Shown one piece after another: positions 1 to 19,720 of a stretch of DNA of 19,720 nt. Below the pieces are notes generated by a model. It saw only the letters and a list, made by a program, of their open reading frames with translations, was not told the origin of the DNA and did no database searches. The DNA comes from a virus (lineage: Duplodnaviria; Heunggongvirae; Uroviricota; Caudoviricetes): IMG/VR virus record IMGVR_UViG_2541047897_000009. The stretch is one strand, 5' to 3'. Numbering within the stretch: position 1 is the first letter of the stretch; the number at the start of each line of letters is the position of its first letter. Position numbers and translations under genes: made by a program.

Positions 1-1254
1 ATGCCAAAACTCACAGATATGCAGATCCGCGCATGGATAAAGGCGGGAGACAGATTTGATGGCAAGGCAGACGGCAACGGCCTTTATATTTGCTACCCCA
101 AAAACTACACAGTCCCGTTCTGGCGATTCCGCTATAAGCTCGCAGGAAAGCAGCGGGCTATGGTTATAGGCTCTTACTCCGAACTGTCACTATCAAAAGC
201 CAGAGAAACAGCAAAAGAGCTGTCAGCCAGAGTTGCTCTTGGCTATGACGTAGCAGCAGAGAAACAGGAACGAAAAGCTGAAGCACTGGCAAAAATGGAG
301 GCTGAGAAAAACGCCATACGCGTTTCAGATCTGGCCGCCGAATACTTCGAGCGCCAGATACTTCCGAGATGGAAACATCCCGATATCCTTCGCCGGAGAA
401 TTGATAAGGATATTAACCCCTGCATTGGGCATATGAAGGTAGAGGACGTTAAGCCACGCCACATTGACGACATGTTGAAAGGTATCGTTGACCGAGGAGC
501 ACCAACGATAGCAACAGATGTATTACGCTGGACACGCCGTATCTTTGACTATGGGATAAAACGCCACGCTCTGGAGATAAACCCTTGTTCAGCGTTTGAA
601 GTATCTGATGCTGGTGGTAAAGAGGTTTCCCGCGACCGTTGGCTAACTCGCGATGAGCTTATCAGGCTATTCGAGGCTATGCGCACCGCAAAAGGATTCA
701 GCCGCCAGAACGAACTGACATTTAAGCTATTGCTGGCACTATGCGTTCGTAAGATGGAGTTATGCGCCGCACGATGGGAAGAGTTTGATTTAGATGGTGC
801 GGTATGGCATTTGCCGGAAGAACGCAGCAAAAACGGAGACCCTATTGATATACCTCTACCTTCCCCAGCCGTTGAATGGTTGAGAGAGCTACACACCTTT
901 TCATGTAATAGCGCATGGGTGCTTCCAGCCAGGAAAATGCAAAACAGAATGATCCCACATATTCAGGAAAGCACTTTACCCGTAGCACTGGCTAAGGTTC
1001 GCGCCGAAATGCCGGATGTGCCTAATTTCACGATTCACGACTTCCGACGCACCGCACGTACTCATTTAGCAGCGTTGGGTGTTGATCCTGTCGTGGCGGA
1101 ACGATGCCTCAATCATCGCATTAAGGGCGTAGAGGGGATTTATAACCGCCATCAGTATTTTGATGAGCGTAAAGCAGCACTGGCACAGTGGGCTGATCTG
1201 CTGGTGGCACTGGAAAGCGGAAAAGACTACAACGTGACACCAATTAGAGCATGA
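1..1254 (+). CDS. int: Tyrosine site-specific integrase, P4 / CP4-57 type
   Basis: 417-aa ORF; N-terminal P4-integrase-like domain (FWRFRYKLAGKQR); C-terminal catalytic signature HDFRRTARTHL and GIYNRHQY (H-x-x-R ... Y). Confidence 0.93.
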   Translation: MPKLTDMQIRAWIKAGDRFDGKADGNGLYICYPKNYTVPFWRFRYKLAGKQRAMVIGSYSELSLSKARETAKELSARVALGYDVAAEKQERKAEALAKMEAEKNAIRVSDLAAEYFERQILPRWKHPDILRRRIDKDINPCIGHMKVEDVKPRHIDDMLKGIVDRGAPTIATDVLRWTRRIFDYGIKRHALEINPCSAFEVSDAGGKEVSRDRWLTRDELIRLFEAMRTAKGFSRQNELTFKLLLALCVRKMELCAARWEEFDLDGAVWHLPEERSKNGDPIDIPLPSPAVEWLRELHTFSCNSAWVLPARKMQNRMIPHIQESTLPVALAKVRAEMPDVPNFTIHDFRRTARTHLAALGVDPVVAERCLNHRIKGVEGIYNRHQYFDERKAALAQWADLLVALESGKDYNVTPIRA

Positions 1255-1272
1255 TGGGAGGAGAGATTCATA

Positions 1273-2223
1273 ATGAAATTACCTGCGCATAAATATTATT
1301 CTTTGGATAAAGCAGCCAAACTGGCCGGATGTGAAGTATCCGATTTAATACACTATGCAGCAATTGGGGTTTTAGAAATATGCACAAAGATTCCACCTAT
1401 TGAATTGTTTTACCATTACCCAAAAGATGAAAATGCCGAGCCAGAATTACTTAAAGTTGAAACAGATAGCTTTTTCGATATAGATGAGAAAGTGGCAAAT
1501 GAGAACTACCTTCTTGGACTGAGCGATAATATAGATGATCCTGAATCATATGGATTATCATCCCTTGATGACAAAAATGACGATAACCACCTGTATTTTA
1601 TTAGATTTTCATACAAATCAGAGCATTTTTCAGTTATAGAGCGATACAATGTCGGAAAGGATAAAAGAGAGATAGAAAGATGGTGCGGTCTATTAGCAAT
1701 TCCTCCTGCATTCATAGATAACGATGAGCGAGAGCTATCAGAATGGGATGATTGGGAGATTTCAGTATGCGAATTGACGCCGCCAAGATGTGACGATTTT
1801 TATAAATCGCCGGATTATGAAATCGGAACTTTTTATATTGACGGATGGTATGAAGTAAGCCGGAACAAAATGTATATAACTGATTATGAATTCAATCTCC
1901 TTATCAATGGAGGAAGATATATTTATGATAAACCCATGCACAAGCCTTCTGCAAACAAGTTATCCAATGATATAAACACGTTGAAAGTCAATAAACGTGC
2001 CGAACGACACGCTGTCAATAGGGAGAAACTATTAAAATCTGCAATTTATATACTTAGTAAGTATCCAGATGAATGCAGAGGAGAAAGGAAAGAAATAAGC
2101 CCGGAAAAGTGGCGTGACTGCCTTGTTCGGCATTTAGGCGAAGTTCCACCACTTATGATAACTAATGAAGATGTAATTCTTAAACATCTACGAGCTGCGG
2201 CAAATGGCAAAGTAGATAGTTAA
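1273..2223 (+). CDS. Hypothetical protein, 316 aa, AT-rich; N-terminal HTH-like motif (AAKLAGCEVSDLIHYAAIG), acidic middle, unknown C-terminal domain
   Basis: Long ORF 19 bp after int stop; markedly lower GC than flanking genes; same position as yfjH in CP4-57 (int-yfjH-alpA), homology unverified. Confidence 0.7.
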   Translation: MKLPAHKYYSLDKAAKLAGCEVSDLIHYAAIGVLEICTKIPPIELFYHYPKDENAEPELLKVETDSFFDIDEKVANENYLLGLSDNIDDPESYGLSSLDDKNDDNHLYFIRFSYKSEHFSVIERYNVGKDKREIERWCGLLAIPPAFIDNDERELSEWDDWEISVCELTPPRCDDFYKSPDYEIGTFYIDGWYEVSRNKMYITDYEFNLLINGGRYIYDKPMHKPSANKLSNDINTLKVNKRAERHAVNREKLLKSAIYILSKYPDECRGERKEISPEKWRDCLVRHLGEVPPLMITNEDVILKHLRAAANGKVDS

Positions 2224-2329
2224 CTTACTATAGAGGTACTGCAAAAATACAGTACCTTTTCATTGTATATCTATACAGTTAGTTTTCTCGTAACGAAGCA
2301 ACAACTATCGTTAAGAGGTTACGGGAAGC

Positions 2330-2533
2330 ATGAACACTGACACTATTCCTACAAAAGGCTATATCAGACGCTTCCGCCTGGCTGAATTGCTGGGCGTTAG
2401 TGTATCCACCATCGACCGTAAAGTAAGAAACGGTTCACTACCACGTCCGGTAAAGCTGGGAGAAAAAATAACTGCGTTTGATGCGGTTGAGATTCACAAC
2501 TGGCTGGCAGAACGCCGCGGGAAGGTGGCCTGA
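2330..2533 (+). CDS. alpA: AlpA-family HTH transcriptional regulator / excisionase-like
   Basis: 67 aa; motif RLAELLGVSVSTIDRKVRNGSLPRPVKLG typical of AlpA/Xis HTH proteins. Confidence 0.88.
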   Translation: MNTDTIPTKGYIRRFRLAELLGVSVSTIDRKVRNGSLPRPVKLGEKITAFDAVEIHNWLAERRGKVA

Positions 2534-2964: not shown

Positions 2965-2976
2965 CGGAGACTGAAA

Positions 2977-3985: not shown

Positions 3986-4478
3986 CCGCCCAGAAGAAGA
4001 TATTTTCACTGGCCGATATGTCGCCAAAATCCAGCAATATGACAGCAAAATCAGGCATTAATACAGCAGATGCAAGCAAAGTTTATCATTTGCTGGTGGT
4101 AGGAGCGGATGCCTTAACTATGTCAGAAATTACGGTCGATGGTGTTAGCGTTGAGAAGGTCAGCGGCTGCGCCAGAGAATTTCTGGTCGTAGATGGCTTT
4201 CTCTGCTCGCGTAGTGGCTCCACAAAAACCTTCGTCCACACGCGCGACGTTAACGAAATGAGCGCGATGTATTGTGCATCTGGTGCTTCCAATAGTGAGT
4301 TTTCGGAGTCCATAAAAAAGAGCTTGCCGTTATGCGGCAACACGGTTTATGGTTATAAGGCACCTCATAAAACGGGTGCCGGGATTGGCGTCCTGGTAAA
4401 TCGAATGGCGACATATGACGCGCCGAGCGTCTTTTTTTATGTCGTAGGTCTGACTCACCCATTTTTTGGGCGTTGGTG

Positions 4479-4484: not shown

Positions 4485-4490
4485 CCAGCG

Positions 4491-6306: not shown

Positions 6307-6316
6307 GGATGGATCC

Positions 6317-6658: not shown

Positions 6659-7022
6659 AAATGCAGAAATGGCGCTTAGCTCCGCAATCGGAGAGCAGGT
6701 GGCAAAGATTGCTGGCGCTGTGTGGATTCATAACCTTCATTCTACTGGTGAAGAGAAAATGGCAATTCAGACGCCAGAGGGACGCACCATTACTACATCT
6801 CTGAAGGCGTCAGATGTTTGTGATCTGATTTGCGCATTCATGTACCCAGCAATGAGGACTGTCCACGGCGATAAGTGGAAACTTGCGACAACCGCTGAAT
6901 TTGATATGTGGCTAAACAATGATGGCATGCTGACTGATTACGGAATAACCAAGTGGCAGATGCTGGTTAGCCATATCGCAAACGCTATAGACCACGTGGG
7001 GTACGGTGATGCGAAACATTGA
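6651..7022 (+). CDS. Hypothetical protein (123 aa)
   Basis: GGGAGG RBS; 8-nt overlap with upstream gene; overlaps primase start. Confidence 0.6.
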   Translation: MRENAEMALSSAIGEQVAKIAGAVWIHNLHSTGEEKMAIQTPEGRTITTSLKASDVCDLICAFMYPAMRTVHGDKWKLATTAEFDMWLNNDGMLTDYGITKWQMLVSHIANAIDHVGYGDAKH

Positions 7023-9765
7023 TCTTATCCGTCAGGTTATCAGTGCGTCTGAAAACAACTGGCCTCATGTGCTGGGCTGCCTGAACATAAATGTCCCTGA
7101 CTCTCCGCGCCGTCATGCTCCCTGCCCTGCATGTGGGGGCAAAGATCGATTCCGGTTCGATGACAACGGGCGCGGTAGCTTCATCTGTAATCAGTGCGGC
7201 GCTGGTGATGGACTGGATTTAATTAAACGCGTAAATAACTGCGACACAACAGAGGCGGCGCTTCTTGCCGCTGATGTTCTGGGTATTGATTACCGGACAA
7301 CGGAAACACCAGAAGCCACCAGCCAGAAACGGGAACAACTGGAAACCGAGCGCCAGCGACGCGAACAGGAGCGCCTGAAAAGGGCAGAGAAGGACGAACA
7401 ACAAAGACGGGATACGTTTTCCCGTCAGTTTGATGACATGCGCAGAAAGGCTGTAAACGGCAAATCTGATTATCTGGTTGCGAAAGGGGTAGGTGATTTT
7501 ACATTCCCCGTGTTGCCCGATGGATCTCTGTTGCTGGCGCTGGTGGATAAATCCGGCGCAGTAACAGCAGCACAGACTATTACCTCACATGGTGAAAAAA
7601 GACTCCTGACAGGTTCAGCAAAGCGAGGGGCATATCACGCCATAAACGCACCAGAAACAACACAGAGCATCTTAATCGCAGAAGGGCTGGCAACGGCATT
7701 ATCTGCCCATTTAATTCGTCCAGAGGCGCTGACAGTGGCGGCGATTGATGCCGGGAACCTGTTATATGTCGCCCAGGTACTGCGGGATAAATTTCCTTCA
7801 GCACAAATCATCATTGCTGCGGATAACGACCACAGCGAAGGAAGACAAAACACGGGGAGAATAGCAGCAGAAAAAGCAGCTTTATCTGTTTCTGGATGGG
7901 TGGCATTACCCCCGACAGATCACAAAGCAGACTGGAATGATTACCACCAAAAACACGGCATTAAATGCGCCACAGAAGCGTTCAATAAGTCAATGTACCA
8001 ACCACAGGGTAATGGCGTGAAACAGGAGCCACAGACCATTGAGGGAAGCGATTTTAAGGTTATGGATACCGACCCACTGAAACCAAGAATAGAAAGCCGC
8101 GAGGATGGTATTTATTGGGTATCTCCGAGAGCTGACAGCCAGAGTGGAGAAATCATCAATAACGAAAGCTGGTTATGTTCTCCGTTAAGCGTTATCGGTA
8201 CTGGCAGAGACGATAAAGACCAGTATCTCATTCTTCGCTGGCTGTCGTTTGGTTCTGAAACGCCGACAACCGCTGCCATTCCACTGGCTGATATTGGTGA
8301 ACGTGAAGGATGGCGCACACTTAAAGCTGGTGGGGTAAATGTCACGACCAAAAGCAGCCTCAGAGCAATACTGGCAGACTGGCTACAACGCAGTGGCTCT
8401 CGTGAATTGTGGCGTGTTGCTCATGCCACTGGCTGGCAATGCGGAGCGTACATCATGCCTGATGGGGAAATCATCGGAACACCTGAAAATCCTGTGCTGT
8501 TCAGCGGGAGAAGCTCAGCCGCAGCCGGATATACCGTCTCAGGGAGCGCGAAAAGCTGGCGTGATAACGTGGCGCGTCTGGCCTTTGGTAACTATTCAAT
8601 GATGACCGGGATCGGCGCAGCACTGGCAGCGCCATTGATTGGGCTGGTGGGCGCTGACGGGTTCGGCATTCATTTCTATGAGCAGTCGAGCGCAGGTAAG
8701 ACCACCACGGCAAACGTGGCGAGCAGCTTATACGGCAACCCTGATTTACTGCGGCTGACGTGGTACGGAACCGCGCTGGGGCTGGCAAATGAAGCTGCCG
8801 CCCACAATGACGGACTAATGCCGCTTGATGAAGTTGGTCAGGGCGCTGATCCTGTCAGTGTTTCACAGTCTGCCTATGCGTTATTTAACGGTGTAGGGAA
8901 ACTGCAAGGCGCTAAAGATGGTGGAAACCGGGATCTAAAACGCTGGCGTACAGTGGCAATCAGCACCGGAGAAATGGATTTAGAAACATTTATCGCTACT
9001 TCCGGGCGAAAAACCAAAGCCGGGCAACTGGTGCGACTGCTGAATATTCCGTTGAGTAAAGCAGTACGCTTTCACGATTACCAGAACGGAAAACAGCACG
9101 CAGACGCACTGAAAGACGCTTACCAGCATCACCACGGCGCGTCCGGGCGTGAGTGGATTAAATGGCTGGCAGACCACCAGCAACAGGCTATTAAAACTGT
9201 TCGTGATTGCGAAAGCAGATGGAGAAGCCTGATCCCATCCGATTATGGTGAGCAGGTTCACCGTGTAGCCGCGCGATTTGCCATTCTGGAGGCCGCATTG
9301 TTGTTAGGCGAGGTTGTAACAGGCTGGGATGCTCAGACATGCCGTGATGCGATACAGCACAGCTATAACGCATGGTTGCGCGAGTTCGGCACAGGTAACA
9401 AAGAGCATCAGCAGATTATTGAACAAACGGAGGCATTTCTTAATGCCTATGGGCTTAGCCGTTTTGCACCATTTCCATACAGCCCGGCAGATTTGCCCAT
9501 CAAAGATTTAGCCGGATACCGTCAGCGTGGAGAACATGACGAAAGTCCAATGATTTTCTACACATTCCCGGCCACATTTGAAAAGGAGATCGCATGTGGT
9601 TTCAACGCAAAACAGTTTGCTGAAGTGTTGAAAAAAGCCGGGATGCTAACCCCACCAAACAGCGGTCGTGGATACCAAAGAAAATCACCACGTATTCAGG
9701 GACGACAAATAAACGTTTATGTACTCAATTACCAGCCAGGAGATTACAACTCATCTGAAGAATGA
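7009..9765 (+). CDS. Bifunctional primase-helicase, P4 alpha type (zinc-ribbon primase + Toprim + C-terminal NTPase)
   Basis: CPACGG...CNQCG zinc ribbon; Toprim-like ILIAEGLATALS ... IIIAADNDH; Walker-A-like SSAGKTT; 919-aa ORF (GTG 7006 / ATG 7009). Confidence 0.9.
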   Translation: MRNIDLIRQVISASENNWPHVLGCLNINVPDSPRRHAPCPACGGKDRFRFDDNGRGSFICNQCGAGDGLDLIKRVNNCDTTEAALLAADVLGIDYRTTETPEATSQKREQLETERQRREQERLKRAEKDEQQRRDTFSRQFDDMRRKAVNGKSDYLVAKGVGDFTFPVLPDGSLLLALVDKSGAVTAAQTITSHGEKRLLTGSAKRGAYHAINAPETTQSILIAEGLATALSAHLIRPEALTVAAIDAGNLLYVAQVLRDKFPSAQIIIAADNDHSEGRQNTGRIAAEKAALSVSGWVALPPTDHKADWNDYHQKHGIKCATEAFNKSMYQPQGNGVKQEPQTIEGSDFKVMDTDPLKPRIESREDGIYWVSPRADSQSGEIINNESWLCSPLSVIGTGRDDKDQYLILRWLSFGSETPTTAAIPLADIGEREGWRTLKAGGVNVTTKSSLRAILADWLQRSGSRELWRVAHATGWQCGAYIMPDGEIIGTPENPVLFSGRSSAAAGYTVSGSAKSWRDNVARLAFGNYSMMTGIGAALAAPLIGLVGADGFGIHFYEQSSAGKTTTANVASSLYGNPDLLRLTWYGTALGLANEAAAHNDGLMPLDEVGQGADPVSVSQSAYALFNGVGKLQGAKDGGNRDLKRWRTVAISTGEMDLETFIATSGRKTKAGQLVRLLNIPLSKAVRFHDYQNGKQHADALKDAYQHHHGASGREWIKWLADHQQQAIKTVRDCESRWRSLIPSDYGEQVHRVAARFAILEAALLLGEVVTGWDAQTCRDAIQHSYNAWLREFGTGNKEHQQIIEQTEAFLNAYGLSRFAPFPYSPADLPIKDLAGYRQRGEHDESPMIFYTFPATFEKEIACGFNAKQFAEVLKKAGMLTPPNSGRGYQRKSPRIQGRQINVYVLNYQPGDYNSSEE

Positions 9766-9780
9766 GCTTCTTCATGTGCG

Positions 9781-9912
9781 TAGAAAAGGTGTTGGTTCAG
9801 TTGGTTCAGTTGGTTCAGTTGGTTCAATTTGTAAAGAGTATTGTTTTATAAGTATTTTATTCTTTTTATTGAACCAACACTGAACCAACAACACGGTATT
9901 TTGAACCAACAC
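9781..9912. repeat. Iteron block A (ori-like): 4 tandem GTTGGTTCA, AT-rich spacer, 3 inverted TGAACCAAC
   Basis: Direct copies at 9781, 9790, 9799, 9808; inverted copies at 9870, 9881, 9902; immediately downstream of the primase gene. Confidence 0.8.
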
Positions 9913-9960
9913 AATGTGACTGAATTGATGCGCACAACACCTGGCTGGCATCAGAGAGTG

Positions 9961-10035
9961 TTTTACGAGACTTTCGTAAAATCCTGTGTACAAGGGCGTG
10001 ACGTTTTTGAAAGTGAGCACTACGAAATTTTCGTA
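9961..10035. promoter_or_regulatory. Pair of palindromic operator-like sites sharing half-site TTTCGTA
   Basis: TTTTACGAGACTTTCGTAAAA (9961-9981) and perfect palindrome TACGAAATTTTCGTA (10021-10035), centres about 57 bp apart. Confidence 0.4.
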
Positions 10036-10230
10036 GTTCAAAAAACAGCCTCTGAGAAGTTGTTATGCCTGTTCAGCAAACCATCCGCATAGCTGATCGC
10101 GAATCAAATTACCAATGGAGCCAGAAGCAAGGGCAGAACTGAAAAGCGCCTGCCGTGAAGAGTAATGCGACACCATAAATATAGTTTTTAGAGTCCATAA
10201 AAAACCTGTCAAAACCTGACACACAGAACG

Positions 10231-10263
10231 ATGCCACCAGCTACTGAGCGGTGGCATTTTTTT
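10231..10263 (+). terminator. Rho-independent terminator
   Basis: 8-bp GC-rich stem ATGCCACC / GGTGGCAT with 11-nt loop, followed by 7 T residues. Confidence 0.65.
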
Positions 10264-10358
10264 GTGCTATTTGTTTCATATTTTGCAATTACTATGATGA
10301 ATATTGCGATTTGTGAAACTATAATAACTGTTGTTTTATACAGTTCTAAGGGGGCGTT

Positions 10359-10520
10359 ATGGCTATTTCAGTAAAGCCGGTATTGATAAGTGAGAAGCAA
10401 ATGGAAGCGATAAAGAAAATTCAGGAAGAGCAGCGTAAAAAATCAGGAATTGGAGTAGCGCCAACTCTGCATGAAATTGCACGAGGGTTAATAGATAAGG
10501 CGCTGGCAGGCTGTATGTGA
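10359..10520 (+). CDS. Small protein (53 aa), possible ribbon-helix-helix DNA-binding regulator
   Basis: Below the 60-aa ORF-track cutoff; strong RBS AAGGGGG 5 nt before ATG; predicted strand-helix-helix pattern. Confidence 0.5.
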   Translation: MAISVKPVLISEKQMEAIKKIQEEQRKKSGIGVAPTLHEIARGLIDKALAGCM

Positions 10521-10536
10521 AAATGGATGGCATCGC

Positions 10537-10998
10537 ATGGAACTAAAATTTATTGATAACCCTGTGCGATTACAGGCCTTTCTTAACGAGCCAGGCAATA
10601 CCGAAAATATTGTTGAGCCGGGGCACACGTACTACATCAAGCCTGATGCGGTATATCTCGGCATCTACGAAGGATTGGTGCTGGCTGGCGTTCATGAAGT
10701 GCGTAACTTCTGGCATAGCATTGTTGAATGCCATGCGGTGTACGCCCCCGGATTCCGTGGTGAATATGCACTGCAAGGGCATCGATTATTCTGCAAGTGG
10801 CTTCTCGAAAACTCACCATTCCTTAACAGCATTACCATGGTTCCTGACACCACGAAATACGGACGGGCAATTATCCGTTTGCTTGGCGCTACCCGTGTTG
10901 GTCACCTTGATGATGCTTATATCAGATGTGGTAAACCCGTCGGCGTAACGCTTTATCAGTTAACTCGGCAACAATATAAGGAATTCAGCGAATGTTAA
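10537..10998 (+). CDS. Hypothetical protein (153 aa); first gene of a coupled 4-gene operon, possibly a virion/ejection-protein assembly factor (P22 gp14-like by position only)
   Basis: Clean ORF; downstream gene start overlaps its stop (ATGTTAA). Confidence 0.65.
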   Translation: MELKFIDNPVRLQAFLNEPGNTENIVEPGHTYYIKPDAVYLGIYEGLVLAGVHEVRNFWHSIVECHAVYAPGFRGEYALQGHRLFCKWLLENSPFLNSITMVPDTTKYGRAIIRLLGATRVGHLDDAYIRCGKPVGVTLYQLTRQQYKEFSEC

Positions 10999-11669
10999 TT
11001 ACCCACATAGCTCATAAACATCTCAATCGTGCCGTATACGAAAAAGGCGGTGATGGTGGTGCCTCTAAAGCTCAGGCGAAGGCCCAGCAGCAGGCAATTG
11101 ATTTGCAGCGCGAGCAGTGGAATACGGTGATGAATAATCTCAAGCCGTATGCAGAAGTCGGATTGCCTGCTTTACAACAACTACAAGGACTGATGACTCT
11201 GGAAGGGCAGAATAAAGCCGCGAATGATTTCTTTGGTTCTGGTTTATATAAAACACAGGCAGATCAGGCCCGTTATCAGAACCTTGTCTCAGCAGAAGCT
11301 ACCGGGGGGCTTGGCTCAACAGCTACCAGTAACCAGTTATCTTCCATTGCGCCCATGCTTTATAACAATTGGCTTAGTGGGCAAATGCAAAATTATGGAA
11401 ACCTGCTAAATGTCGGGATGAATGCGGCATCAGGGCAGGCAACAGCAGGGCAAAACTACGCCAATAATACCGGGCAACTCTTGCAGGGGCTTGGCGCTAT
11501 TCGTGCAGGTCAGGCGCAGCAGCCATCCAGTCTTGCGCGTGGTATTGGTGGGGCGGCATCAGGCGCTTTAGCGGGTGCGCAACTTGGTTCCGTTGTTCCG
11601 GGTATAGGTAATGTCGCCGGGGCTATTGGTGGTGGGCTTATTGGTCTTGTTGGGGGGCTTGGATTCTAA
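10992..11669 (+). CDS. Putative virion internal / DNA-ejection protein (225 aa; P22 gp7-like by size, order and composition)
   Basis: AAGGAA RBS; Q/A-rich; glycine-zipper hydrophobic C-terminus (GIGNVAGAIGGGLIGLVGGLGF). Confidence 0.7.
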   Translation: MLITHIAHKHLNRAVYEKGGDGGASKAQAKAQQQAIDLQREQWNTVMNNLKPYAEVGLPALQQLQGLMTLEGQNKAANDFFGSGLYKTQADQARYQNLVSAEATGGLGSTATSNQLSSIAPMLYNNWLSGQMQNYGNLLNVGMNAASGQATAGQNYANNTGQLLQGLGAIRAGQAQQPSSLARGIGGAASGALAGAQLGSVVPGIGNVAGAIGGGLIGLVGGLGF

Positions 11670-13090
11670 TGGCGACATGGCAACTTGGCGGGCTGCCTAG
11701 CATGGCACCGCAAAATGATAATGCTCCTCGTTCTTCCGTTCCTCAGCCTGTGCAGTATCAGCAGCAGCCAAACGTAGGTTTAATGGCGCTACAGGGGCTA
11801 AGAGGCGTTGCTGAGATTAATCAGCAGGCACGTCAACAACAGCGTAAAGCAGAGTTTCAGAAAGCATATGCCGGGGCTTTTGAGTCTGGAGACAGAAACA
11901 AAATGCGCAGTCTTATTTCTGAGTATCCAGAAGAATTTGAAAGCGTTCAGAAAGGGATGGGCTTTATTGATGACGACCAGAGAAATTCTATTGGTCATCT
12001 TGCGACTAGTGCTCAAATCGCATCTTCGCTCGGAACTGGGGCATTTGGAAAATTCATAGCAGATAACGAAGATGAAATGCGTCGCTTGGGAATTTCTCCT
12101 GAGTCTGTTGCCGAAATGCATGTTAATGATCCACAGGGATTCCAGCGGCTTGCTGGTAGTATGGCACTGTTTTCTCTCGGTCATGAGAAGTATTTCGATA
12201 TCAAAGATCAAATGGAAGGTCGGGATATTGAGCGTGGCAAGTTGGCAGAAACAATCCGCAGCAATCAGGCTGGCGAAGCACTTCAGGCGAGAGGGCAGGA
12301 TATTAGCCGAGCAAATGCGTTAACGTCAGCATATGCACCAACAGCAGCAATGCAGAATTACAATCAGTACGCTCAAATGTTAAAGGAGGATCCAGAGGGG
12401 GCGGCGGCATTTGCGGCAGCGGCTGGAATTAATACAAACGCCAAAAAATTAATGAGTGTTAGAGAAAACGATGATGGCACTGTCACAAAATACTACACAG
12501 ACGGAAGTGAAGAGCAGGGAAAACTAAACCAGCCAATATCTGGAGATGGGTTTCGTCCAATAGCTTTGCCAACAGCCCAAAAGATCATGGAAAAGTCGCC
12601 AGAAGGGGCTAAAAAAGCTGCTGGATTTGCATACAGAGTTAGGGATGCTCTTGATTCAATGGATACACTGAAAGGCCAGCTTAGCCCACAGCGAGTGGCG
12701 ATCATTAATAATGCTTTGGGTAATGGGACGCTGGCTAACTTAACGCTCAGCCCAACAGAGCAGCAATACGTTGTTAATGCTAATGACGCAATAATGGCAA
12801 TACTCCGTCAGGAAACAGGGGCAGCTATCGTACCTGCTGAAATGTCAAAATATTATCAAATGTATTTCCCTCAGCCTGGCGACTCCACAAAAACCATTGA
12901 TACCAAGCGCCGGAAGATGGAAAACCAGTTCAATTCGCTGAAAGCTGCTTCTGGTCGAGCTTATGATGCTTTGCGGGTTATTTCAGCAGTTGACAGAGGG
13001 ACTTCTTCTTCGTCGCAGACATTGCCGCAATCTGAGCAGGTATCACAGCCAGCAGCCAGCAGTAACTTTTCTTCACTATGGGGTGATTAA
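11669..13090 (+). CDS. Putative DNA-ejection / internal virion protein (473 aa; P22 gp20-like by size and order)
   Basis: TAATG overlap with upstream gene; low-complexity Q/A/S-rich termini. Confidence 0.7.
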   Translation: MATWQLGGLPSMAPQNDNAPRSSVPQPVQYQQQPNVGLMALQGLRGVAEINQQARQQQRKAEFQKAYAGAFESGDRNKMRSLISEYPEEFESVQKGMGFIDDDQRNSIGHLATSAQIASSLGTGAFGKFIADNEDEMRRLGISPESVAEMHVNDPQGFQRLAGSMALFSLGHEKYFDIKDQMEGRDIERGKLAETIRSNQAGEALQARGQDISRANALTSAYAPTAAMQNYNQYAQMLKEDPEGAAAFAAAAGINTNAKKLMSVRENDDGTVTKYYTDGSEEQGKLNQPISGDGFRPIALPTAQKIMEKSPEGAKKAAGFAYRVRDALDSMDTLKGQLSPQRVAIINNALGNGTLANLTLSPTEQQYVVNANDAIMAILRQETGAAIVPAEMSKYYQMYFPQPGDSTKTIDTKRRKMENQFNSLKAASGRAYDALRVISAVDRGTSSSSQTLPQSEQVSQPAASSNFSSLWGD

Positions 13091-15195
13091 TGGCTAAAGC
13101 ATGGAAAGATGTTATCGCCTCTCCACAGTATCAGGCGTTAGCACCAGAACAAAAAGCGCAGGCTCAGGAGCAATACTTCAATGAAGTCGTTGCCCCGCAA
13201 GCCGGAGAAAGTGTAGCGCAGGCTAAGCAGGCTTTTTATGCTGCCTATCCACTACCATCAACGAATGAAATAGACCGATCCCAATCAGCAACTCAAAATA
13301 TTCAACATACATCATCTGATAATTCTCTTGCGTCAGGGTATGCAAAGTTAGCTACTCAGCAAAGAGAGGGGCTTGAGCGTTCAGCAGAACAGGGAGCCAG
13401 CCTTGGGGCTGCGATGCGCGATGCTATAACAGGCGAAAGCCGAATGACTCCAGAGATGGCGAGACTGCAAAATGTCGACCTTGCCCCAGAGTTAACCTCA
13501 CTCAGTATGGATGCTCTAAAAGCTCGATGGTCTCAACTTTTCGGCTCTGACGCATCTCAGGAAAAGATTCTTCAGAGCATGGGAGCGAAATTAAGGCAGG
13601 ATGAGAAGGGTAACACTATCGTTTCCCTGCCATCCGGTGATTATGCTCTGAACAAGCCGGGTTTATCGCCGCAAGACGTGGCATCGTTTCTGGCTAATGC
13701 GCTGGCGTTTACACCAGCGGGCAGGGCCGGAACGGTGCTGGGGGCCATAGGGAAATCAGCAGCTACAGATTTAGCACTACAGGGAGCCACCAGCCTTGCT
13801 GGTGGAGAAGATATTGATCCGTTACAAACGGTAATTTCTGCTGGCATTGGCGGCATTGGTAAGGGGCTGGAGAATACAGCGAGTGCGGTTTCGAGGGCTG
13901 TTCGTGGTGATATGGCACCGGAAGCGAAAGCCGCTGTTGATTTTGCATCGGAAAGAAACCTGCCGTTAATGACCAGTGACGTACTGAAAGATAAAAACAC
14001 TGTGCAGAGTCTGGCCCAGAAAACAGGCGAAAAAATCCCTTTTTTTGGAACGGGTACGAACAGGTTGAATCAACAACAGGCACGGGAAAATCTGGTCAGA
14101 ACATATAACGATGGTCTGGGAGGCATTTCAGATAAACAGCTTTATGAATCTGCGACTAAAGGGCAGCAAAAATTCATTGAGGCCGCAGGAAAGCGATATA
14201 ACCGCATAATTGACGCTATGGGGGATACCCCTGTCGATCTCTCAAACACGGTAAAAGCTATCGACAATCAGATTGCCGTGTTAAGCCGCCCGGGCAAATC
14301 TCAGGATAGAGCCGCGGTAAAAGTCTTGCAGCAATTTAAAGACGATATCACCAGCGGACCAAATGACCTGCGTCTGGCGAGAGAAAACAGAACTGACCTT
14401 CGAAAGCGGTTCATGAATTCAAACGAGACAGTTGATAAAGACACGCTCCAGAAAGCCAGCGATATTGTCTACAAGGCATATACGCTGGATATGAGAAGGG
14501 CAGTAGCCCAGAAACTGGGTTCAGAAGAAGCAGCCAATATGGCAAGGGTCGATCGCTCATGGTCTAAATTCAATGACATGATGGGAAGAACGCGCGTTCA
14601 GAAGGCAATAGCCAGCGGCAAGGCCACGCCTGAGGATGTAACAAAACTCGTTTTTAGCCAAAGCTCATCAGAACGTTCTCAGCTTTACAGGCTTCTGGAT
14701 GACAACGGCAGGCAGAACGCACGGGCAGCCATAATACAGAATGCTGTAGATAAGGCGACTGATTCGGCGGGGAATATCAGCGTTGAGAAGTTTATTAACA
14801 CGCTACACCGGAACAGAAAGCAATCCGCAACGTTCTTTAAGGGCGTGCACGGAAAGGAACTGGACGGCATTATTAAATACCTCAACGATACCAGACAGGC
14901 GGCAAAGGTTGACGGTCAGAAATTAAACAGCCAGAAACTTTATGGCCTGCTGGTTGGTGGAGGCGCTATAAATGCGGCAGTTCTGGCGGGGATGCTGAAA
15001 ACGGCTGCGTTTGTTGTTCCTGCTGCTGGTGCCGTAGGCGGAGCAGCGAAGGCATACGAAAGCCCTGTTATACGAAATGCCTTGTTACGTCTGGCAAATA
15101 CGCCAAAAGGTAGCACAGCATATGACAGAGCGATCAGTACGGTCACACAATCACTGACCACAGCAGCACAAGCATCGCAAAAGGAAGCTCAATAA
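13090..15195 (+). CDS. Putative DNA-ejection / internal virion protein (701 aa; P22 gp16-like by position)
   Basis: TAATG overlap with upstream gene; A/Q/G-rich; hydrophobic glycine-rich segment near C-terminus (GLLVGGGAINAAVLAGMLKTAAFVVPAAGAVGGAA). Confidence 0.7.
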   Translation: MAKAWKDVIASPQYQALAPEQKAQAQEQYFNEVVAPQAGESVAQAKQAFYAAYPLPSTNEIDRSQSATQNIQHTSSDNSLASGYAKLATQQREGLERSAEQGASLGAAMRDAITGESRMTPEMARLQNVDLAPELTSLSMDALKARWSQLFGSDASQEKILQSMGAKLRQDEKGNTIVSLPSGDYALNKPGLSPQDVASFLANALAFTPAGRAGTVLGAIGKSAATDLALQGATSLAGGEDIDPLQTVISAGIGGIGKGLENTASAVSRAVRGDMAPEAKAAVDFASERNLPLMTSDVLKDKNTVQSLAQKTGEKIPFFGTGTNRLNQQQARENLVRTYNDGLGGISDKQLYESATKGQQKFIEAAGKRYNRIIDAMGDTPVDLSNTVKAIDNQIAVLSRPGKSQDRAAVKVLQQFKDDITSGPNDLRLARENRTDLRKRFMNSNETVDKDTLQKASDIVYKAYTLDMRRAVAQKLGSEEAANMARVDRSWSKFNDMMGRTRVQKAIASGKATPEDVTKLVFSQSSSERSQLYRLLDDNGRQNARAAIIQNAVDKATDSAGNISVEKFINTLHRNRKQSATFFKGVHGKELDGIIKYLNDTRQAAKVDGQKLNSQKLYGLLVGGGAINAAVLAGMLKTAAFVVPAAGAVGGAAKAYESPVIRNALLRLANTPKGSTAYDRAISTVTQSLTTAAQASQKEAQ

Positions 15196-15257
15196 CAGAT
15201 GGCCATGGATGGTTGGTTATAATAGTAATTAGTATTTTTTTCAAATAGTTATGAACA

Positions 15258-15656
15258 TTAACACTTGCCTTTAACATTGCCGACAAATGAGCCTGTAAAT
15301 GAGCCTATATCAGATCGACTAATTGTTCGTGTATGGATCACTTTTCCGTCATTTGAGATTGCCCATGTGACAAGCGTCAGTTGACCATCTCGATAGCTTC
15401 TTCCCATCATGGCATTCGGAGACAGCGGGTAATAATCAATACCTCCACCTATACCATCTTTTGCCAAGATAAGATCCGCCTTCTCTTTACTTATTACCAA
15501 ATGAAAGGTATCTGGTATAGATGATAACTTATAGTTATACCCATCTGAACTTGAGGCTTCTTGTCCTTTCAGATCACCAATAATCCAGCATTCAGCGTTC
15601 GCTCCAAAAGAAGCAAATAATAAACCGGAGACAACCAATCGCTTCAATTGATTCAC
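15258..15656 (-). CDS. Small secreted (periplasmic) protein, about 132-aa precursor, unknown function
   Basis: Near-perfect RBS AAGGGAGGG 5 nt before a GTG start; N-terminal signal peptide (M)NQLKRLVVSGLLFASFGANA with cleavage after ANA; Cys at both ends of the mature protein; convergent with the ejection-like operon. Confidence 0.6.
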   Translation of the reverse strand: MNQLKRLVVSGLLFASFGANAECWIIGDLKGQEASSSDGYNYKLSSIPDTFHLVISKEKADLILAKDGIGGGIDYYPLSPNAMMGRSYRDGQLTLVTWAISNDGKVIHTRTISRSDIGSFTGSFVGNVKGKC

Positions 15657-15768
15657 ACCAACCCTCCCTTTAGCGTTGTTTAGAATGGCAATCATCATAT
15701 ATCCAAGACATGGCATTTGGTACATAGCTTGGGTCGGGATTTCAAATCCGCCCCCGTTGATGGGGTCG

Positions 15769-16136
15769 TTACAGTACGCGCATATCCGCTTTATGTGAAA
15801 CAGGAAGATTTTTCTGATATCACTGCCACAGCAAAACACCAATTTCGTGACCAGTACGCGCGCGAGGGGTATCAGTTGCAAAAAGTTTTGCAACTACGTC
15901 CGACCAGTACGCGCACGATGGAGGGGAGTACCATAAAACTGTTCTCTACATAAGTCAGAGTGGTGGTGATGTGTTGATTATCGGCGTATATGCGCACAGG
16001 ACGCGCTATGACGATGTTTTATGCGGGTACACCAATCACATGATAAATCGCGTTACATGACCTCTCATGTTGTGCTGGTGGTTATCACGACGTTCTGAAT
16101 CTGGCCTTTGCCTGGTATTTTGCGACAAGTACGCGC
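15769..16136 (+). promoter_or_regulatory. Array of four direct repeats (core CAGTACGCGC) with an embedded 18-bp palindrome
   Basis: TTACAGTACGCGC 15769-15781; GACCAGTACGCGC 15849-15861 and 15902-15914 (identical); GACAAGTACGCGC 16124-16136; palindrome TTGCAAAAAGTTTTGCAA 15876-15893 between copies 2 and 3. Confidence 0.45.
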
Positions 16137-16344
16137 GCGTAGCATCGAAATAATCGGATGGCGTATGCTGCTGGTAATATGAAGACCGATAGCATTAACC
16201 GAAAGGAGAAAGACTTCTCGATAACGGCAAGGGGGCTGAATTGCGAGGCGAGATTAAGCAACTGTCTTGAACGTAAAAATCATGGAGCAACATGATGGTA
16301 CGATTCATTCCATTCTTCGTTCTTTCTGAGCATTGCGTTCAGGC

Positions 16345-16680
16345 TTAGTCAAAATTAGTGTTGCGAGCGGACCTATTAGTAATTGTTGGTGCGATGCGCC
16401 TGTTATGGATTGTTATGGTTGTGGCAGGCCTGATTAATATCCAGTATGACCACCAGCTATGAGAGGCCACCTCAGTGGTTCGCAGTTGCAGGTTTGCACT
16501 CAGGTTCGCAGGGTTTTGGCTACTTTCACGTGCGAACCTGCAGAATTGCAAAGGACAACTAAGTCCTCTGGCCAACTCCCGGTTTATGAGCGACACAGTC
16601 CGCCTGGCGCGTCGTTTTCGTCGAGTGCGCCCATCAGCTTGTCCATGGACTATCCACCACTCGATATTAAAGCTAATCAT
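16345..16680 (-). CDS. Dubious ORF (111 aa) translationally coupled to alpA2; possibly a decayed gene or non-coding structured region
   Basis: ATGA overlap with alpA2 stop, but the protein is W/R-rich and unprotein-like; two + strand frames are also open across the same stretch. Confidence 0.2.
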   Translation of the reverse strand: MISFNIEWWIVHGQADGRTRRKRRARRTVSLINRELARGLSCPLQFCRFARESSQNPANLSANLQLRTTEVASHSWWSYWILIRPATTITIHNRRIAPTITNRSARNTNFD

Positions 16681-16862
16681 TGGTTGCCAGCCCGCGAATC
16701 AAGTTTGTTCTGGATCCAAGCTTCAACCTCCTCAAGCGACCATCTAGCTGATCTACCAATTTTAACTGGCTGTGGAAACGTGCCCGTCTTAACCCATGAG
16801 TAGATTGCCGTTTTCTTGAAGCCCGTTCTGAGCATGACTTCGCTTAATTTGATAAGGCGCAT
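16677..16862 (-). CDS. alpA: AlpA-family HTH regulator (second copy, diverged)
   Basis: 61 aa; LRTGFKKTAIYSWVKTGTFPQPVKIGRSARWSLEEVEAWI; GAGGAG RBS. Confidence 0.85.
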   Translation of the reverse strand: MRLIKLSEVMLRTGFKKTAIYSWVKTGTFPQPVKIGRSARWSLEEVEAWIQNKLDSRAGNQ

Positions 16863-17114
16863 AGAGGCTCCTCTGCTTTAGATTAAGCATAGTGACAATC
16901 TGGCTTCGGGCGGTATCCAAAAGCGAGGTATCCATGTTGGTATCCACCAAAACGCTGTTTACCAAAAAAGTTACCACCGGAACAGGACATTTTGAGCTGT
17001 AACTTAACACATAGCATATGGAGTTCACGCATAGACTTCACGCACAACGGCTCCGGCCAGTGAAGAATCACCCTGGCTGGCAATATAATGCCGATCACCA
17101 TCAGAGGGGAATCC

Positions 17115-17306
17115 ATGACACCACGAGAAATCGAGCTGCTGACCATTGCCAAGCTGGAGCATGACGGCCACCAGCTCAGCCCGGCAGAACTGTGGGAATT
17201 AAGGCGCCAGCTGGCAGAGGGCCCTGTAATAGCCAGGCGGTACCGCGAAATGATGACCAGCCCCGCATATCGCTGGAGCAAACCAGCGCCGCTCCGTGCG
17301 CGGTGA
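17115..17306 (+). CDS. Hypothetical small protein (63 aa), divergent from alpA2
   Basis: AGAGGGG RBS; internal ATG 17115 preferred over 17088; TATAAT at 17084-17089 upstream. Confidence 0.45.
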   Translation: MTPREIELLTIAKLEHDGHQLSPAELWELRRQLAEGPVIARRYREMMTSPAYRWSKPAPLRAR

Positions 17307-17378
17307 GCAGCACCTAACCAGCACTAGACAAGCCCTGTGCTGGTGGATGTCCCTCATAATTAGCGGTTTTTAAACGGC

Positions 17379-17503
17379 GTGTTGGTTCACGGCCTCTTTT
17401 TGTTGGTTCAAAAATGGGGTGTGTTGGTTCACTTTTTGCGAATAATCCTTTTAAAAACAATACTCTTTACAAATTAAACCAACTGAACCAACTGAACCAA
17501 CAC
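17379..17503. repeat. Iteron block B (crr-like): inverted copy of block A
   Basis: GTTGGTTCA at 17381, 17402, 17423; spacer AACAATACTCTTTACAAAT is the reverse complement of the block-A spacer; (T/A)GAACCAAC at 17475, 17484, 17493. Confidence 0.8.
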
Positions 17504-17537
17504 CTTTTTGCTTATCTATATAGTCTGAGAGGCAGAA

Positions 17538-17825
17538 ATGATAAGGGACAGGAAAGCTGAAGAGCTGGAGTCAAAAGGGCTATGCCGGAGAGCTGCCACA
17601 CGATGGGCAGAAGTCATGACGCTGGCAGATGGCGATAAAGAACGTGAACATGCAGCAAACAGACGCTCTGAATGTATCCGTAGGGCGGCACGCCCACCAG
17701 CAACTACAGACAGATTCGGAGATTTAAGACAGGCAGTTAAGCGAACTCATTCGGCTCTTGGTATGGATGAGGAAGCGAGAGGGTACTTCAGGCGTTATCG
17801 CGATAGAGATTGCCAGAGACAGTAA
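17538..17825 (+). CDS. PerC-family transcriptional regulator-like protein (95 aa)
   Basis: AEELESKGLCRRAATRWAEVM resembles the conserved PerC/Pch N-terminal motif (from memory); GAGAGG RBS. Confidence 0.65.
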   Translation: MIRDRKAEELESKGLCRRAATRWAEVMTLADGDKEREHAANRRSECIRRAARPPATTDRFGDLRQAVKRTHSALGMDEEARGYFRRYRDRDCQRQ

Positions 17826-18236
17826 TGCTCTCTCTGTTTTGGCAAATTACCCCTCACTTTGAAGGGATCGGAGCTATAAAAATGGTTTTAGGTACATTCC
17901 TCAAATTGAGGATTGTGGAAAAACCAATGGGTTAGGCTTTTCCCCCAATGGGGGTTTTCGAAAGAATCAATGGGTTAGGTCATCGTGCAAATTTGCACTC
18001 TGCCAGCCAACGCAATTTTTCGTTGGCGGAAATATCAGGTATTTACTGAACGAACGGTCTGCCCGTCTGTTCAGTTACCAGTTTCACATGGCTGTTTTAT
18101 GTGAGGCCGGAAGGTTTTTCGGACATCACTATTGGGTACAGCAATTTCGCGAGCAATACGCACGCGTAACAAATATGCCTAGCATCTTAGCTATGTGCTG
18201 ACAAATTGCGATACTTCCCATCCTGTATTGTGTTTG

Positions 18237-18698
18237 TCACCAGTGCCTTAGAGTTTCATAATTCATAACTGCTATGGCGATCTCCAGCTTAGTCGTTTCA
18301 AGTATTTCTTCACATAAGACCAGATCATGAATGATGTTTTTGAGTAGCTCCTTATCGATTGCTCCATCAGCCACCCAAACTGCGATGTTTTCCATTTCTC
18401 GCACAAAAAGTTGTACACAATGGCCAAAGCCATTTATCTCAAGAAAGTATGTTGAAAGGGCGATGCTTGATCTTTTATTTCCGTCACTAAAAGCATGGAA
18501 TTTATTGATTGCAAAGAACAAGTGACTTAGTTTGTCTACAAATCCTGGGTAATACCAGTCGTTTTGGATATGCTCAAGGGCACTCGCCAGTACCCCTTGG
18601 TCTCTGATTCCGTGTAAGCCGCCCGTTTTCTCAATGATCCAATCATGAACCCTAATGGCGTGTTCAATATCAAAATAATTGAATTGTATATCGTCCAT
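18237..18698 (-). CDS. Fic/Doc-family protein (death-on-curing-like toxin; 153 aa)
   Basis: Fic/Doc core motif HAFSDGNKRSS (H-x-F-x-D-G-N-K-R); GGGGG RBS 5 nt upstream; 8 bp downstream of partner gene on the same strand. Confidence 0.85.
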   Translation of the reverse strand: MDDIQFNYFDIEHAIRVHDWIIEKTGGLHGIRDQGVLASALEHIQNDWYYPGFVDKLSHLFFAINKFHAFSDGNKRSSIALSTYFLEINGFGHCVQLFVREMENIAVWVADGAIDKELLKNIIHDLVLCEEILETTKLEIAIAVMNYETLRHW

Positions 18699-18706
18699 TT
18701 ATACCC

Positions 18707-19720
18707 CTATCGGTCTTTTAGTCTTTTGAACACTTCTAGGGTTTCTGGGTCGTTCAGGCGCTCTTCAAGTGATTTACTTTTCTCACCCAAGAAACGTTCA
18801 AAGTCCCCTTCAGGTACAGCTCTTACGTAAGCTTCAAGTTTTTCATGCAGCGCATCTCTGAAACAGAGATCCCTACTTGCCATTTTGGTTCTGGCATCTA
18901 GCATCATAGGCTTAAACAATGGATGAGATTCAAATTGTTTAAAAATAGCTTCTGCTTCCTGTTGTGTCAGTTTTCTGCCTAAACGAGAGAATTCTTGTTT
19001 TAATTCATGTGCAATACCTGATTCGAAACCTGCAATAAGAGTTAGAGCTTCGGAGTACATTGTGTCCCGGATTTTCTCTTTTTGAGCAAGATTCAATACC
19101 TTGCGGTACTCGGCCGCGTCTTCGTGGAAAATACTTTGATACACAAGGTTGGTAAACCTTGCATACTTCCAATTATTCCCTTCGACGCATTCATCTAAGG
19201 CATCAGTGAATTGCTTGCGATAGCTTTCTTCTTGAAAAGAAGCCAATAGGTAATTCTCATCACGTTGGTTGATGTACTTGGTATGTCCACCAGCCCTTTC
19301 GGCTAAAGTATCAATGACAATATCAAGCAGGCGCGTACGTATAATCTTGGCTTGCTCACTTTCGACCAGTAGCATGGCGAAGTTCAGGACAGCTCGGTAA
19401 TTAAACACTCCAATAGTAGGAGCCTTGTTACCCTCATTGATGAAGGAGACATGCTCTAACCCTTTGAATTCTTTTAGCTCTCTCCCTTTTATAAGTCGAT
19501 AACCATTGCTCTTGAGTTCATTGCTATGATTGGCGATATACCGTTCCACAGTGGCATCGCTTATACCAAAAATTTCCATAAGTTGACTTTTTGTAAAAAG
19601 TCGTTCTCCATTGAACTCAACTCCACCAAGAGCAAGATGTTTTTCAGCTTGTCGGAGTGCATAGGAGTTGTTCAGAATATTTTGTCTGTCATGAGCGGAG
19701 GTTGTTAAATCTTTAGCCAT
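18707..19720 (-). CDS. RhuM/DinD-like protein (337 aa), upstream partner of the Doc-like gene; start coincides with the window edge
   Basis: AT-rich ORF; overall pattern resembles RhuM-family proteins that commonly pair with Fic/Doc genes (from memory, unverified); stop TAG 8 nt before Doc ATG. Confidence 0.6.
   Translation of the reverse strand: MAKDLTTSAHDRQNILNNSYALRQAEKHLALGGVEFNGERLFTKSQLMEIFGISDATVERYIANHSNELKSNGYRLIKGRELKEFKGLEHVSFINEGNKAPTIGVFNYRAVLNFAMLLVESEQAKIIRTRLLDIVIDTLAERAGGHTKYINQRDENYLLASFQEESYRKQFTDALDECVEGNNWKYARFTNLVYQSIFHEDAAEYRKVLNLAQKEKIRDTMYSEALTLIAGFESGIAHELKQEFSRLGRKLTQQEAEAIFKQFESHPLFKPMMLDARTKMASRDLCFRDALHEKLEAYVRAVPEGDFERFLGEKSKSLEERLNDPETLEVFKRLKDR

Follow-up and report, generated by a model that had tools for sequence, protein, structure and literature searches.

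The DNA analysed here is a 19,720-nt stretch (IMG/VR record IMGVR_UViG_2541047897_000009, Caudoviricetes; hereafter the window), and our subject is the operon at positions 10359-15195, which was shown by comparison with known protein families to be a complete and intact set of P22-type genes for gp14 (an assembly factor), gp7, gp20, and gp16. Judged from its genes and alignments, the window was shown to be a phage-inducible chromosomal island (PICI), a satellite of P22-like (Lederbergvirus) phages, of the kind represented by EcCIMP1, the PICI of Escherichia coli MP1 whose helper is the P22-like Lederbergvirus vB_EcoP_Kapi1 (hereafter Kapi1; Pick, Stadel & Raivio, ISME J 2025, PMC11773190). The operon comprises five open reading frames (ORFs) on the plus strand, and together with its upstream elements it is laid out as follows:

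10228..10266, plus strand: intrinsic terminator (GC-rich stem followed by a T run) that divides the primase/ori unit from the ejection operon
10284..10358, plus strand: conserved leader, recognized in an alignment of seven islands from four genera
10359..10520, plus strand: island-specific small leader gene (53 aa), whose product is identical to EcCIMP1 protein WP_001018524.1
10537..10998, plus strand: gp14 homolog of the DUF2824 type (153 aa; Pfam PF11039, E 1.3e-60, 204 bits; phrog_651)
10992..11669, plus strand: gp7 homolog, ejection protein (225 aa; Pfam P22_gp7 PF25688, E 1.9e-72; phrog_598)
11669..13090, plus strand: gp20 homolog, periplasmic conduit protein (473 aa; Pfam Inj_translocase PF16928, E 5.7e-58; phrog_917)
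13090..15195, plus strand: gp16 homolog, inner-membrane ejection protein (701 aa; phrog_770 'DNA transfer protein', E 7e-154, full length)

A first-pass annotation of the window had described four co-directional genes of 153, 225, 473, and 701 aa, which are present at exactly the positions it gave. Their junctions overlap as it had reported, first in GCGAATGTTAA (ATGTTAA) and then in TCTAATGGCG and GATTAATGGC (TAATG both times), and the strong ribosome-binding site that it had noticed ahead of the small gene is AAGGGGG, within TAAGGGGGCGTTATG. From sizes and composition it had also guessed a relationship to the P22 gp14-gp7-gp20-gp16 module. The resemblance in size and order is real, since the P22 proteins have 151, 229, 471, and 609 aa, respectively, and the guess of homology was correct as well: all four products gave full-length PHROGs matches, and Pfam, PHROGs, and blastp comparisons with the P22 and Sf6 ejection proteins all reveal homology.

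The gp14 homolog is 98% identical to its counterpart in EcCIMP1, 80% to Kapi1 gp14, and 23% to P22 gp14, and its gene lies directly 5' of gene 7, which is the position of gp14 in Kapi1. The gp7 homolog scored 244.3 bits against a gathering cutoff of 28, with residues 16-223 corresponding to profile positions 19-229 of 230; it retains the central AEATGGLGSTAT motif and, in its C-terminal segment, the glycine zipper pointed out in the first-pass annotation, a feature common to phage gp7 proteins, and it is 99.6% identical to EcCIMP1 gp7 and 54-57% to gp7 of P22-like reference phages, with 54-56% for P22 and Sf6. In the gp20 homolog, the Inj_translocase domain (the N-terminal domain of gp20) reached 196.6 bits (cutoff 29.7), and residues 1-473 match the 509-position profile of phrog_917 (E 1.5e-111). 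This protein is a mosaic, being 82% identical to that of the SA186 island and, over the N-terminal part only, 48% identical to that of EcCIMP1 and 34-46% to those of P22-like reference phages, with 38-46% for P22 and Sf6. Residues 19-700 of the gp16 homolog correspond to positions 3-667 of the 668 in phrog_770; identity is 33% to Sf6 gp13 (blastp, approximately 700 aa in 729 columns, E ~1e-93) and 30% to P22 gp16, and the best match in isolated phages is 66% (phages N7 and HZ41). The local Pfam copy gave no gp16-family match for this 701-aa protein; the entry PF26808 (Phage_P22_gp16) is assigned to related proteins of islands. A Pfam match to Huntingtin on the same protein was discarded as a chance match. 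None of the five operon proteins had a match in NCBIfam or in a sequence search of the PDB.

At the DNA level, at most 11% of the operon is covered by any sequenced phage, i.e., the segment does not map as a contiguous piece of an ordinary P22-like prophage. Short patches are 90-96% identical to Kapi1, Louie, and Sf6, including a stretch of approximately 200 nt at the gp20/gp16 junction that is 96% identical to Sf6, which shows that exchange with real phages is continuing. The leader/small-gene region and the 2.3 kb following gp16 had no relevant match in the phage database; both segments are island-specific. When gp7 was used as the query, every fetched context of relatives with at least 70% identity was an island of the same type, with the layout int – AlpA – Bro/AntA – Ash – DUF927 primase – (SSB, ProQ) – small gene – (gp14) – gp7 – gp20 – gp16, and relatives at 61-69% identity were located within complete P22-like prophages. 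Such islands were observed in the Citrobacter freundii complex, Klebsiella, Pectobacterium polonicum, and, near xseA, in E. coli; xseA is the third E. coli attachment (att) site at which the order primase–small gene–(14)–(7)–20–16 is found. A gp16 scan of species-representative genomes detected one sole close relative, in Escherichia sp. MOD1-EC7003, the other matches being ordinary P22-like prophages at 30-39% identity. Among complete E. coli genomes, the ori/leader/small-gene region is present in 329, the junction of the small gene with gp14 in 258 of 5426, and the whole operon in 181. Approximately 5-6% of these genomes have such islands.

The cargo is kept across genera under strong purifying selection. 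Between genera, the ratio of nonsynonymous to synonymous substitution rates (dN/dS) is 0.04-0.12 for gp14, gp7, gp20, and gp16, at synonymous divergences (dS) of 0.4-2.4; between the window and SA186 it is 0.15 for gp16 and 0.31 for gp20. The island gp7 sequences are monophyletic (77-99.6% identity between islands, no more than 67% to copies in phages). It is conceivable that the operon is a fragment of a P22-like prophage that was captured by recombination and has no function now, considering that its origin in P22-like phages is clear and that patches are still being exchanged (e.g., the 200 nt shared with Sf6). However, the ORFs are intact in all islands examined, dN/dS values lie between 0.04 and 0.15, synteny extends over four genera, and the genes stand behind a conserved island-specific leader not found in phages. 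Because gp7 forms a clade of its own and dN/dS between genera is 0.04-0.12, the module is not a decaying remnant; an inert remnant is contradicted by selection and synteny, and we regard this possibility as very improbable.

The genes that follow the small leader gene differ among islands, and the variants are found both at the same att site and at others:

E. coli 042, MS 85-1, and MP1: four genes (14-7-20-16)
SA186 and Z0117: gp20 and gp16 alone
E1535 and FDAARGOS_1077: another gp20/gp16 allele pair, 75%/41% identical to that of Kapi1, together with a different primase
64.1: an M41-like peptidase and no ejection genes

The small gene stands ahead of every one of these cargo variants, the non-ejection cargo included; in island 64.1 (locus positions 9157-10001) it is followed by a metallopeptidase of approximately 220 aa with a HEAGH motif. 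Island 50EVAW also has no ejection genes, and its post-primase cargo consists of SSB and an M41-family peptidase (24023-24661 of the locus); searches of this island for the iteron 9-mers (leader motifs) and for the small leader gene found neither. The M41 peptidases, in place of the ejection genes in 64.1 and as post-primase cargo in 50EVAW, show that the slot accepts alternative cargo. The minimal variants (SA186, E1535, and Z0117) retain exactly gp20 and gp16, the obligate matched pair.

Comparison with EcCIMP1 further singles out this pair. The two backbones are 97.9% identical over window positions 2523-11829 (9.3 kb) and 97.1% over 15731-17618 (1.9 kb). Besides differences at the integrase end (1-2522) and at the right end (17619-19720), they diverge in a single internal segment:

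11830..15730, no strand: cassette unlike that of EcCIMP1 (the greater part of gp20, gp16 in full, and a convergent envelope gene), with nothing alignable between the flanks
15258..15698, minus strand: the convergent gene, at the position of sieA in P22, encoding a 146-aa protein with a signal peptide (phrog_2651)

The window cassette encodes proteins of 473 and 701 aa and the 146-aa secreted protein, whereas that of EcCIMP1 encodes a 439-aa protein, a 906-aa gp16 with a lytic-transglycosylase domain, and a 232-aa lipoprotein. The slot following gp16 contains a SieA homolog in SA186, four-transmembrane proteins of approximately 130 aa in E1535 and 042, and in EcCIMP1 the lipoprotein, encoded on the operon strand. 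The SA186 protein is 29% identical to SieA (E 3e-7), has four transmembrane segments and an NRYPGEA motif of the RYPxEA type, and also matches phrog_7745. The minus-strand variants (window, SA186, E1535, and 042) have their first ~15 codons in common (MMIAILNxAKGRVGV); the EcCIMP1 lipoprotein does not. The gp20-gp16 pair and the next envelope gene are swapped between islands as one cassette.

In P22, SieA blocks DNA entry and is both necessary and sufficient for exclusion, and the mutations by which phages escape it are located in gp16 and gp20 (Leavitt et al., mBio 2024, PMC10883804). The same study showed that foreign sets of ejection proteins assemble and function in P22 virions, that gp7 can be exchanged, and that gp16 and gp20 have to be derived from one and the same phage: mismatched gp16/gp20 are assembled into P22 virions and the particles are non-functional. 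It reported sieA only from P22-like prophages. The SA186 island resembles the P22 system in that its slot holds a SieA homolog and that the target of SieA, gp20/gp16, is the very pair swapped between islands, and it differs in that the homolog sits in a PICI; in the window, the slot gene encodes a different protein, one that is secreted. The behaviour of mismatched particles raises the question of whether the island might poison virions, its gp20/gp16 co-assembling with mismatched helper proteins and rendering helper progeny non-infectious. The helper would then spread less, an interference of the sort that other satellites exert on their helpers, and the low identity of the island proteins to those of Kapi1 (26-34% for gp20 and approximately 24% for gp16) would favour such poisoning. 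However, Kapi1 titres from induced lysogens are the same with EcCIMP1 (PMC11773190), the satellite's own particles would be equally harmed, and the islands supply both members of a matched pair, not one mismatched subunit; we consider poisoning improbable.

The leader has a perfect -10 element (TATAAT, 10320-10325) and no -35 element, with a TTTGCAAT box upstream and an inverted repeat (AACTGT/ACAGTT) at 10326-10345 ahead of the ribosome-binding site. A sigma-70 scan found no full promoter in the leader, implying that the promoter depends on an activator. The terminator at 10228-10266 is kept in E. coli, Citrobacter, and Pectobacterium islands, and the operon is a transcription unit of its own, with a promoter that we infer to be activator-dependent. 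The small leader gene has a dN/dS of 0.02-0.08 across genera. Its product, RHH-like according to the first-pass annotation, had no Pfam match, and profile comparison with Arc/Mnt in hhalign gave a probability of 1%. In a single-sequence AlphaFold model (predicted local distance difference test score, pLDDT, of 78), residues 1-11 are extended and residues 12-29 and 37-52 form helices; the model had no Foldseek match. The predicted fold is compatible with a ribbon-helix-helix protein.

A possible route for packaging was observed upstream of the primase:

4127..4233, minus strand: copy of the pac region of a P22-type small-terminase gene (gene 3), 86.9% identical to P22 nt 4-110, with the core 28-mer at 4206-4233

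In P22, the matching segment covers the annotated pac site together with the 85 nt of gene 3 that follow it; in the window, the copy runs antisense to the annotated 'ash' ORF, inside which it lies. It matches 117 P22-like phage records, with a small-terminase gene beneath nearly all of the 40 matches listed. The fragment is present in every EcCIMP1-type island, EcCIMP1 included, and the core in all related islands. The islands of Citrobacter, Klebsiella, and Pectobacterium and those of the xseA type do not have the long fragment; 3' of gp16 they have two to five direct 28-mers (GAAGrTTTwT-N6-7-TCACTACGCGAG) with unrelated flanks. The best 28-mer copy differs from P22 pac at three of 28 positions (expected by chance: 0.0 per 19.7 kb). 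Several copies in islands of other genera agree exactly with the pseudo-pac pattern published for P22, from which the copies in the window and in EcCIMP1 deviate at two and one of 17 positions, respectively. No such pac sequence was found in Kapi1, which suggests that Kapi1 is less than optimal as a helper and that the cognate helpers are phages whose gene 3 is of the P22 type. A P22-type gene 3 is present in 258 of 5426 complete E. coli genomes, and strain 4750 has both it and the island.

Pick et al. (PMC11773190) labelled the EcCIMP1 genes 'DNA transfer/DUF2824', stated that phage structural genes are absent, and, without using the word 'ejection', suggested a packaging role for EcCIMP1_017-019. 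According to this suggestion, the products would redirect helper packaging or head assembly to island DNA. The position 3' of the primase is where other PICIs keep genes for packaging or capsid redirection, and the PHROGs label for gp14 is 'head morphogenesis'. On the other hand, of the four proteins, three are members of families in which the proteins studied so far are ejected parts of the conduit and not terminase or capsid-size factors, and a packaging route is already provided by the cis-acting pac-like site. A role in packaging or capsid morphogenesis is therefore, in our judgement, improbable too, slightly more so than poisoning.

We propose instead that the operon serves the delivery of island DNA, by a course of events on which our opinion is evenly balanced. 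During growth of a P22-like helper, AlpA or another activator would switch on the -35-less promoter, and island ejection proteins would be made beside those of the helper and built into helper procapsids. The helper terminase would package island concatemers from the pac-like site, two 20-kb island copies amounting to about one headful, and island DNA would pass from the resulting particles through a conduit that consists, at least in part, of the matched island gp20 and gp16. The probable payoff would be evasion of exclusion: with a gp20/gp16 specificity unlike that of the helper, the island might enter cells with SieA-type exclusion, such as lysogens of the helper. Exclusion evasion would account for the joint replacement of gp20-gp16 and the adjacent exclusion-type gene in islands that are otherwise near-identical. 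More tentatively, and with some doubt as to the whole, we suggest that an Enterobacterales satellite lineage re-arms helper particles with its own gp20/gp16 plus gp7/gp14, swaps the pair together with an exclusion gene, enters helper-excluding cells, shields its host, and is packaged via the pac mimic; such a satellite would take an active part in the arms race over SieA-type entry and exclusion.

Several points weigh against delivery. Ejection proteins enter procapsids ahead of DNA, and thus they could not be sorted to satellite-filled heads, so that any benefit or cost would be shared with helper progeny. In the window, the 146-aa slot protein showed no transmembrane bundle and no similarity to SieA. 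Since related islands with the same leader bear an M41-like peptidase in place of the ejection genes, islands of this type can do without the module. A co-resident P22-type prophage seems to be missing from most genomes that have the island (only 2 of 21 EcCIMP1 strains have one), and in strains FP4 and 042 the pac fragment of the island is the only one. EcCIMP1 is excised and circularised only when Kapi1 is present, with alpA and int required, and Kapi1 transduces it at a very low rate (~4.8e3 particles/ml) (PMC11773190). Finally, the only measured phenotype, i.e., the heightened superinfection immunity of Kapi1 lysogens to Kapi1 conferred by EcCIMP1, fits a role in defence at least as well (PMC11773190).

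In such a role, the ejection homologs and the envelope protein would be made in the resident cell and would block DNA entry by P22-like phages, possibly as decoy or dominant-negative subunits of the conduit in the periplasm or inner membrane; the module would thus be a superinfection-exclusion system located in a cargo hotspot of the satellite. EcCIMP1 has the above effect on immunity and no known defence system was found in it (PMC11773190), a SieA homolog or another envelope protein adjoins gp16, and the module occupies a variable cargo slot after the primase, where other islands have SSB/ProQ or the M41-like peptidase. The window also bears PDC-M59A/B, a candidate defence pair in PADLOC. 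However, none of the four proteins matches a PADLOC model, and an envelope or SieA-like gene would do alone, considering that P22 SieA is necessary and sufficient (PMC10883804). Moreover, the retention of gp14, a non-injected assembly factor, and of the full matched set better suits virion assembly, and the upstream terminator and missing sigma-70 -35 element suggest an operon that is silent until activated. We therefore consider defence cargo unlikely, though with a much better claim than poisoning or packaging.

The remaining features agree with a PICI. The window represents an island of approximately 20 kb between yicC and dinD, and its principal features outside the operon are:

1..2533, plus strand: integrase (1-1254), a hypothetical gene, and an AlpA regulator (2330-2533; Phage_AlpA, 34.3 bits, cutoff 21)
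7006..9765, plus strand: primase/helicase with profile matches to Zn-ribbon, Toprim, and DUF927
9784..9915, no strand: iteron block A, ori-like and just 3' of the primase (GTTGGTTCA four times, an AT-rich spacer, and TGAACCAAC three times)
17379..17508, no strand: iteron block B, which repeats block A in inverted orientation (arms of 48 nt, 98% complementary) and is also located inside EcCIMP1

Further content includes an AntA antirepressor, an 'Ash' region, an alpA_1-type helix-turn-helix (HTH) gene, PerC, and a Doc/HTH pair. The window is 99.8% identical overall to E. coli strain P4, where 24-nt direct repeats at 9562 and 29569 of the locus, 20,007 bp apart and outside the window, are putative att sites. 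The operon is 100% identical to that strain and the antA/ash/pac region (2977-5046) only 97-99%, and thus the window probably comes from a close relative, or else this region is recombinant. The features of Gram-negative PICIs are present, namely an integrase at one end with att repeats, AlpA 3' of int, and a primase with an adjacent iteron origin; by the strict definition PICIs have no phage structural or lysis genes, from which the window departs in that P22-like phages have gp7, gp20, and gp16 in their virions. Like EcCIMP1, the window is ~20 kb long and has two iteron blocks, an alpA_1-type HTH gene, PerC, and the pac-like fragment, besides the identical small leader protein and nearly identical gp14 and gp7. 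It differs in its integrase and att site (yicC-dinD, as opposed to tRNA-Thr, proA-yagU, in EcCIMP1) and in having the Doc/HTH pair at its right end. This PDC-M59-like pair consists of a Doc/Fic toxin (18237-18698, minus strand; PDC-M59B, 3e-30) and a 337-aa HTH protein (18707-19720, minus strand; PDC-M59A, 3e-103), and it is accessory cargo not present in EcCIMP1.

The first-pass annotation had read the window as a satellite-like element, which the EcCIMP1-like backbone (97.9%) bears out, EcCIMP1 itself being excised only in the presence of its helper, which transduces it. It had placed the operon between two iteron blocks, both of which are real; as block B lies within the experimentally delimited EcCIMP1, it does not belong to a different element. 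Block B is present in all six fetched islands with a full Toprim/DUF927 primase, and two E1535-type islands with a DUF5906 primase keep it (near PerC) and have no block A, so that the blocks are not simply a duplicated origin of one primase type. The reported absence of capsid, portal, terminase, and tail genes agrees with our Pfam and PHROGs scans, in which no window ORF matched these families or lysis families. The description as a P4-type replicon holds only loosely: the iterons are bipartite and an RNA of the C4/CI type is present, but the primase is of the Toprim/DUF927 type, and Pfam, PHROGs, and NCBIfam scans of the larger window ORFs, several small hypothetical ORFs excluded, found no sid, psu, delta, or P4-family primase. 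Sister islands do encode a 'P4 family' primase. A strict P4-like satellite was rejected since sid, psu, and delta were not found, and an ordinary P22-like prophage was rejected in view of the missing morphogenesis genes. Rfam models matched isrK (67.1 bits, 4360-4437) and C4 antisense RNA (79.5 bits, 4500-4587), both on the plus strand, upstream of the primase and within the 355-aa 'Ash family' ORF. This part of the window looks like an RNA immunity region in the style of P4/P1, and the 'Ash' ORF may be over-called.

Some additional repeats and homologies were observed in the right part of the window. TTTCGTGACCAGTACGCGCGCG occurs in three or four copies between gp16 and PerC (15842-15868, 15902-15921, 16117-16143, and ~18144), which may be degenerate relatives of the pac-like 28-mers of other islands. 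At 16255-16351, approximately 95 nt are 94-96% identical to a sequence that in many E. coli genomes adjoins IS110-family transposase genes ('putative zinc ribbon protein'). After PerC, a 40-nt tandem pair with internal palindromes (17897-17979) is weakly similar (73-80%) to Kapi1 13227-13289, inside the Kapi1 anti-repressor gene.

The module resembles the ejection modules of P22, Sf6, and Kapi1 in protein families, gene order, sizes, abutting or overlapping junctions, and the envelope or exclusion gene (sieA in P22) that follows gene 16 in convergent orientation. However, in true P22-like prophages it is located between the tail-needle gene 26 and the tailspike gene (portal...gp26-14-7-20-16-tailspike), whereas in the window it has the primase, origin, and small gene upstream and the envelope gene, HTH gene, and PerC downstream. 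Known satellites contribute capsid-size factors, capsids, or terminase adaptors. Capsid-forming PICIs (cf-PICIs) and P4 (Sid/Psu) likewise supply structural or assembly proteins of their own and leave the rest to the helper, but what they supply are capsid, portal, terminase, and capsid-size or decoration proteins, and in our proposal it would be injected internal proteins. Our literature searches turned up no satellite described as encoding injected internal proteins. The first-pass annotation had called such an arrangement unusual, and a satellite does carry an ejection set here; it is less unusual than was thought in that the element family is already published. Since the element belongs to the EcCIMP1 family, the novelty is moderate: the family and the existence of these genes were known, and the identification as a complete gp14-7-20-16 set is new. 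To this our analysis adds deep conservation of the module in a satellite lineage, the gp20-gp16-exclusion cassette, and the pac mimic. For EcCIMP1, it offers a named function for the 'DNA transfer' genes, a candidate slot for the unexplained immunity, and a pac mimic that predicts efficient helpers. If island proteins are indeed built into helper particles, satellites would alter what a phage particle can enter, with consequences for host range, for superinfection exclusion, and for how islands with virulence regulators (PerC) and defence genes spread.

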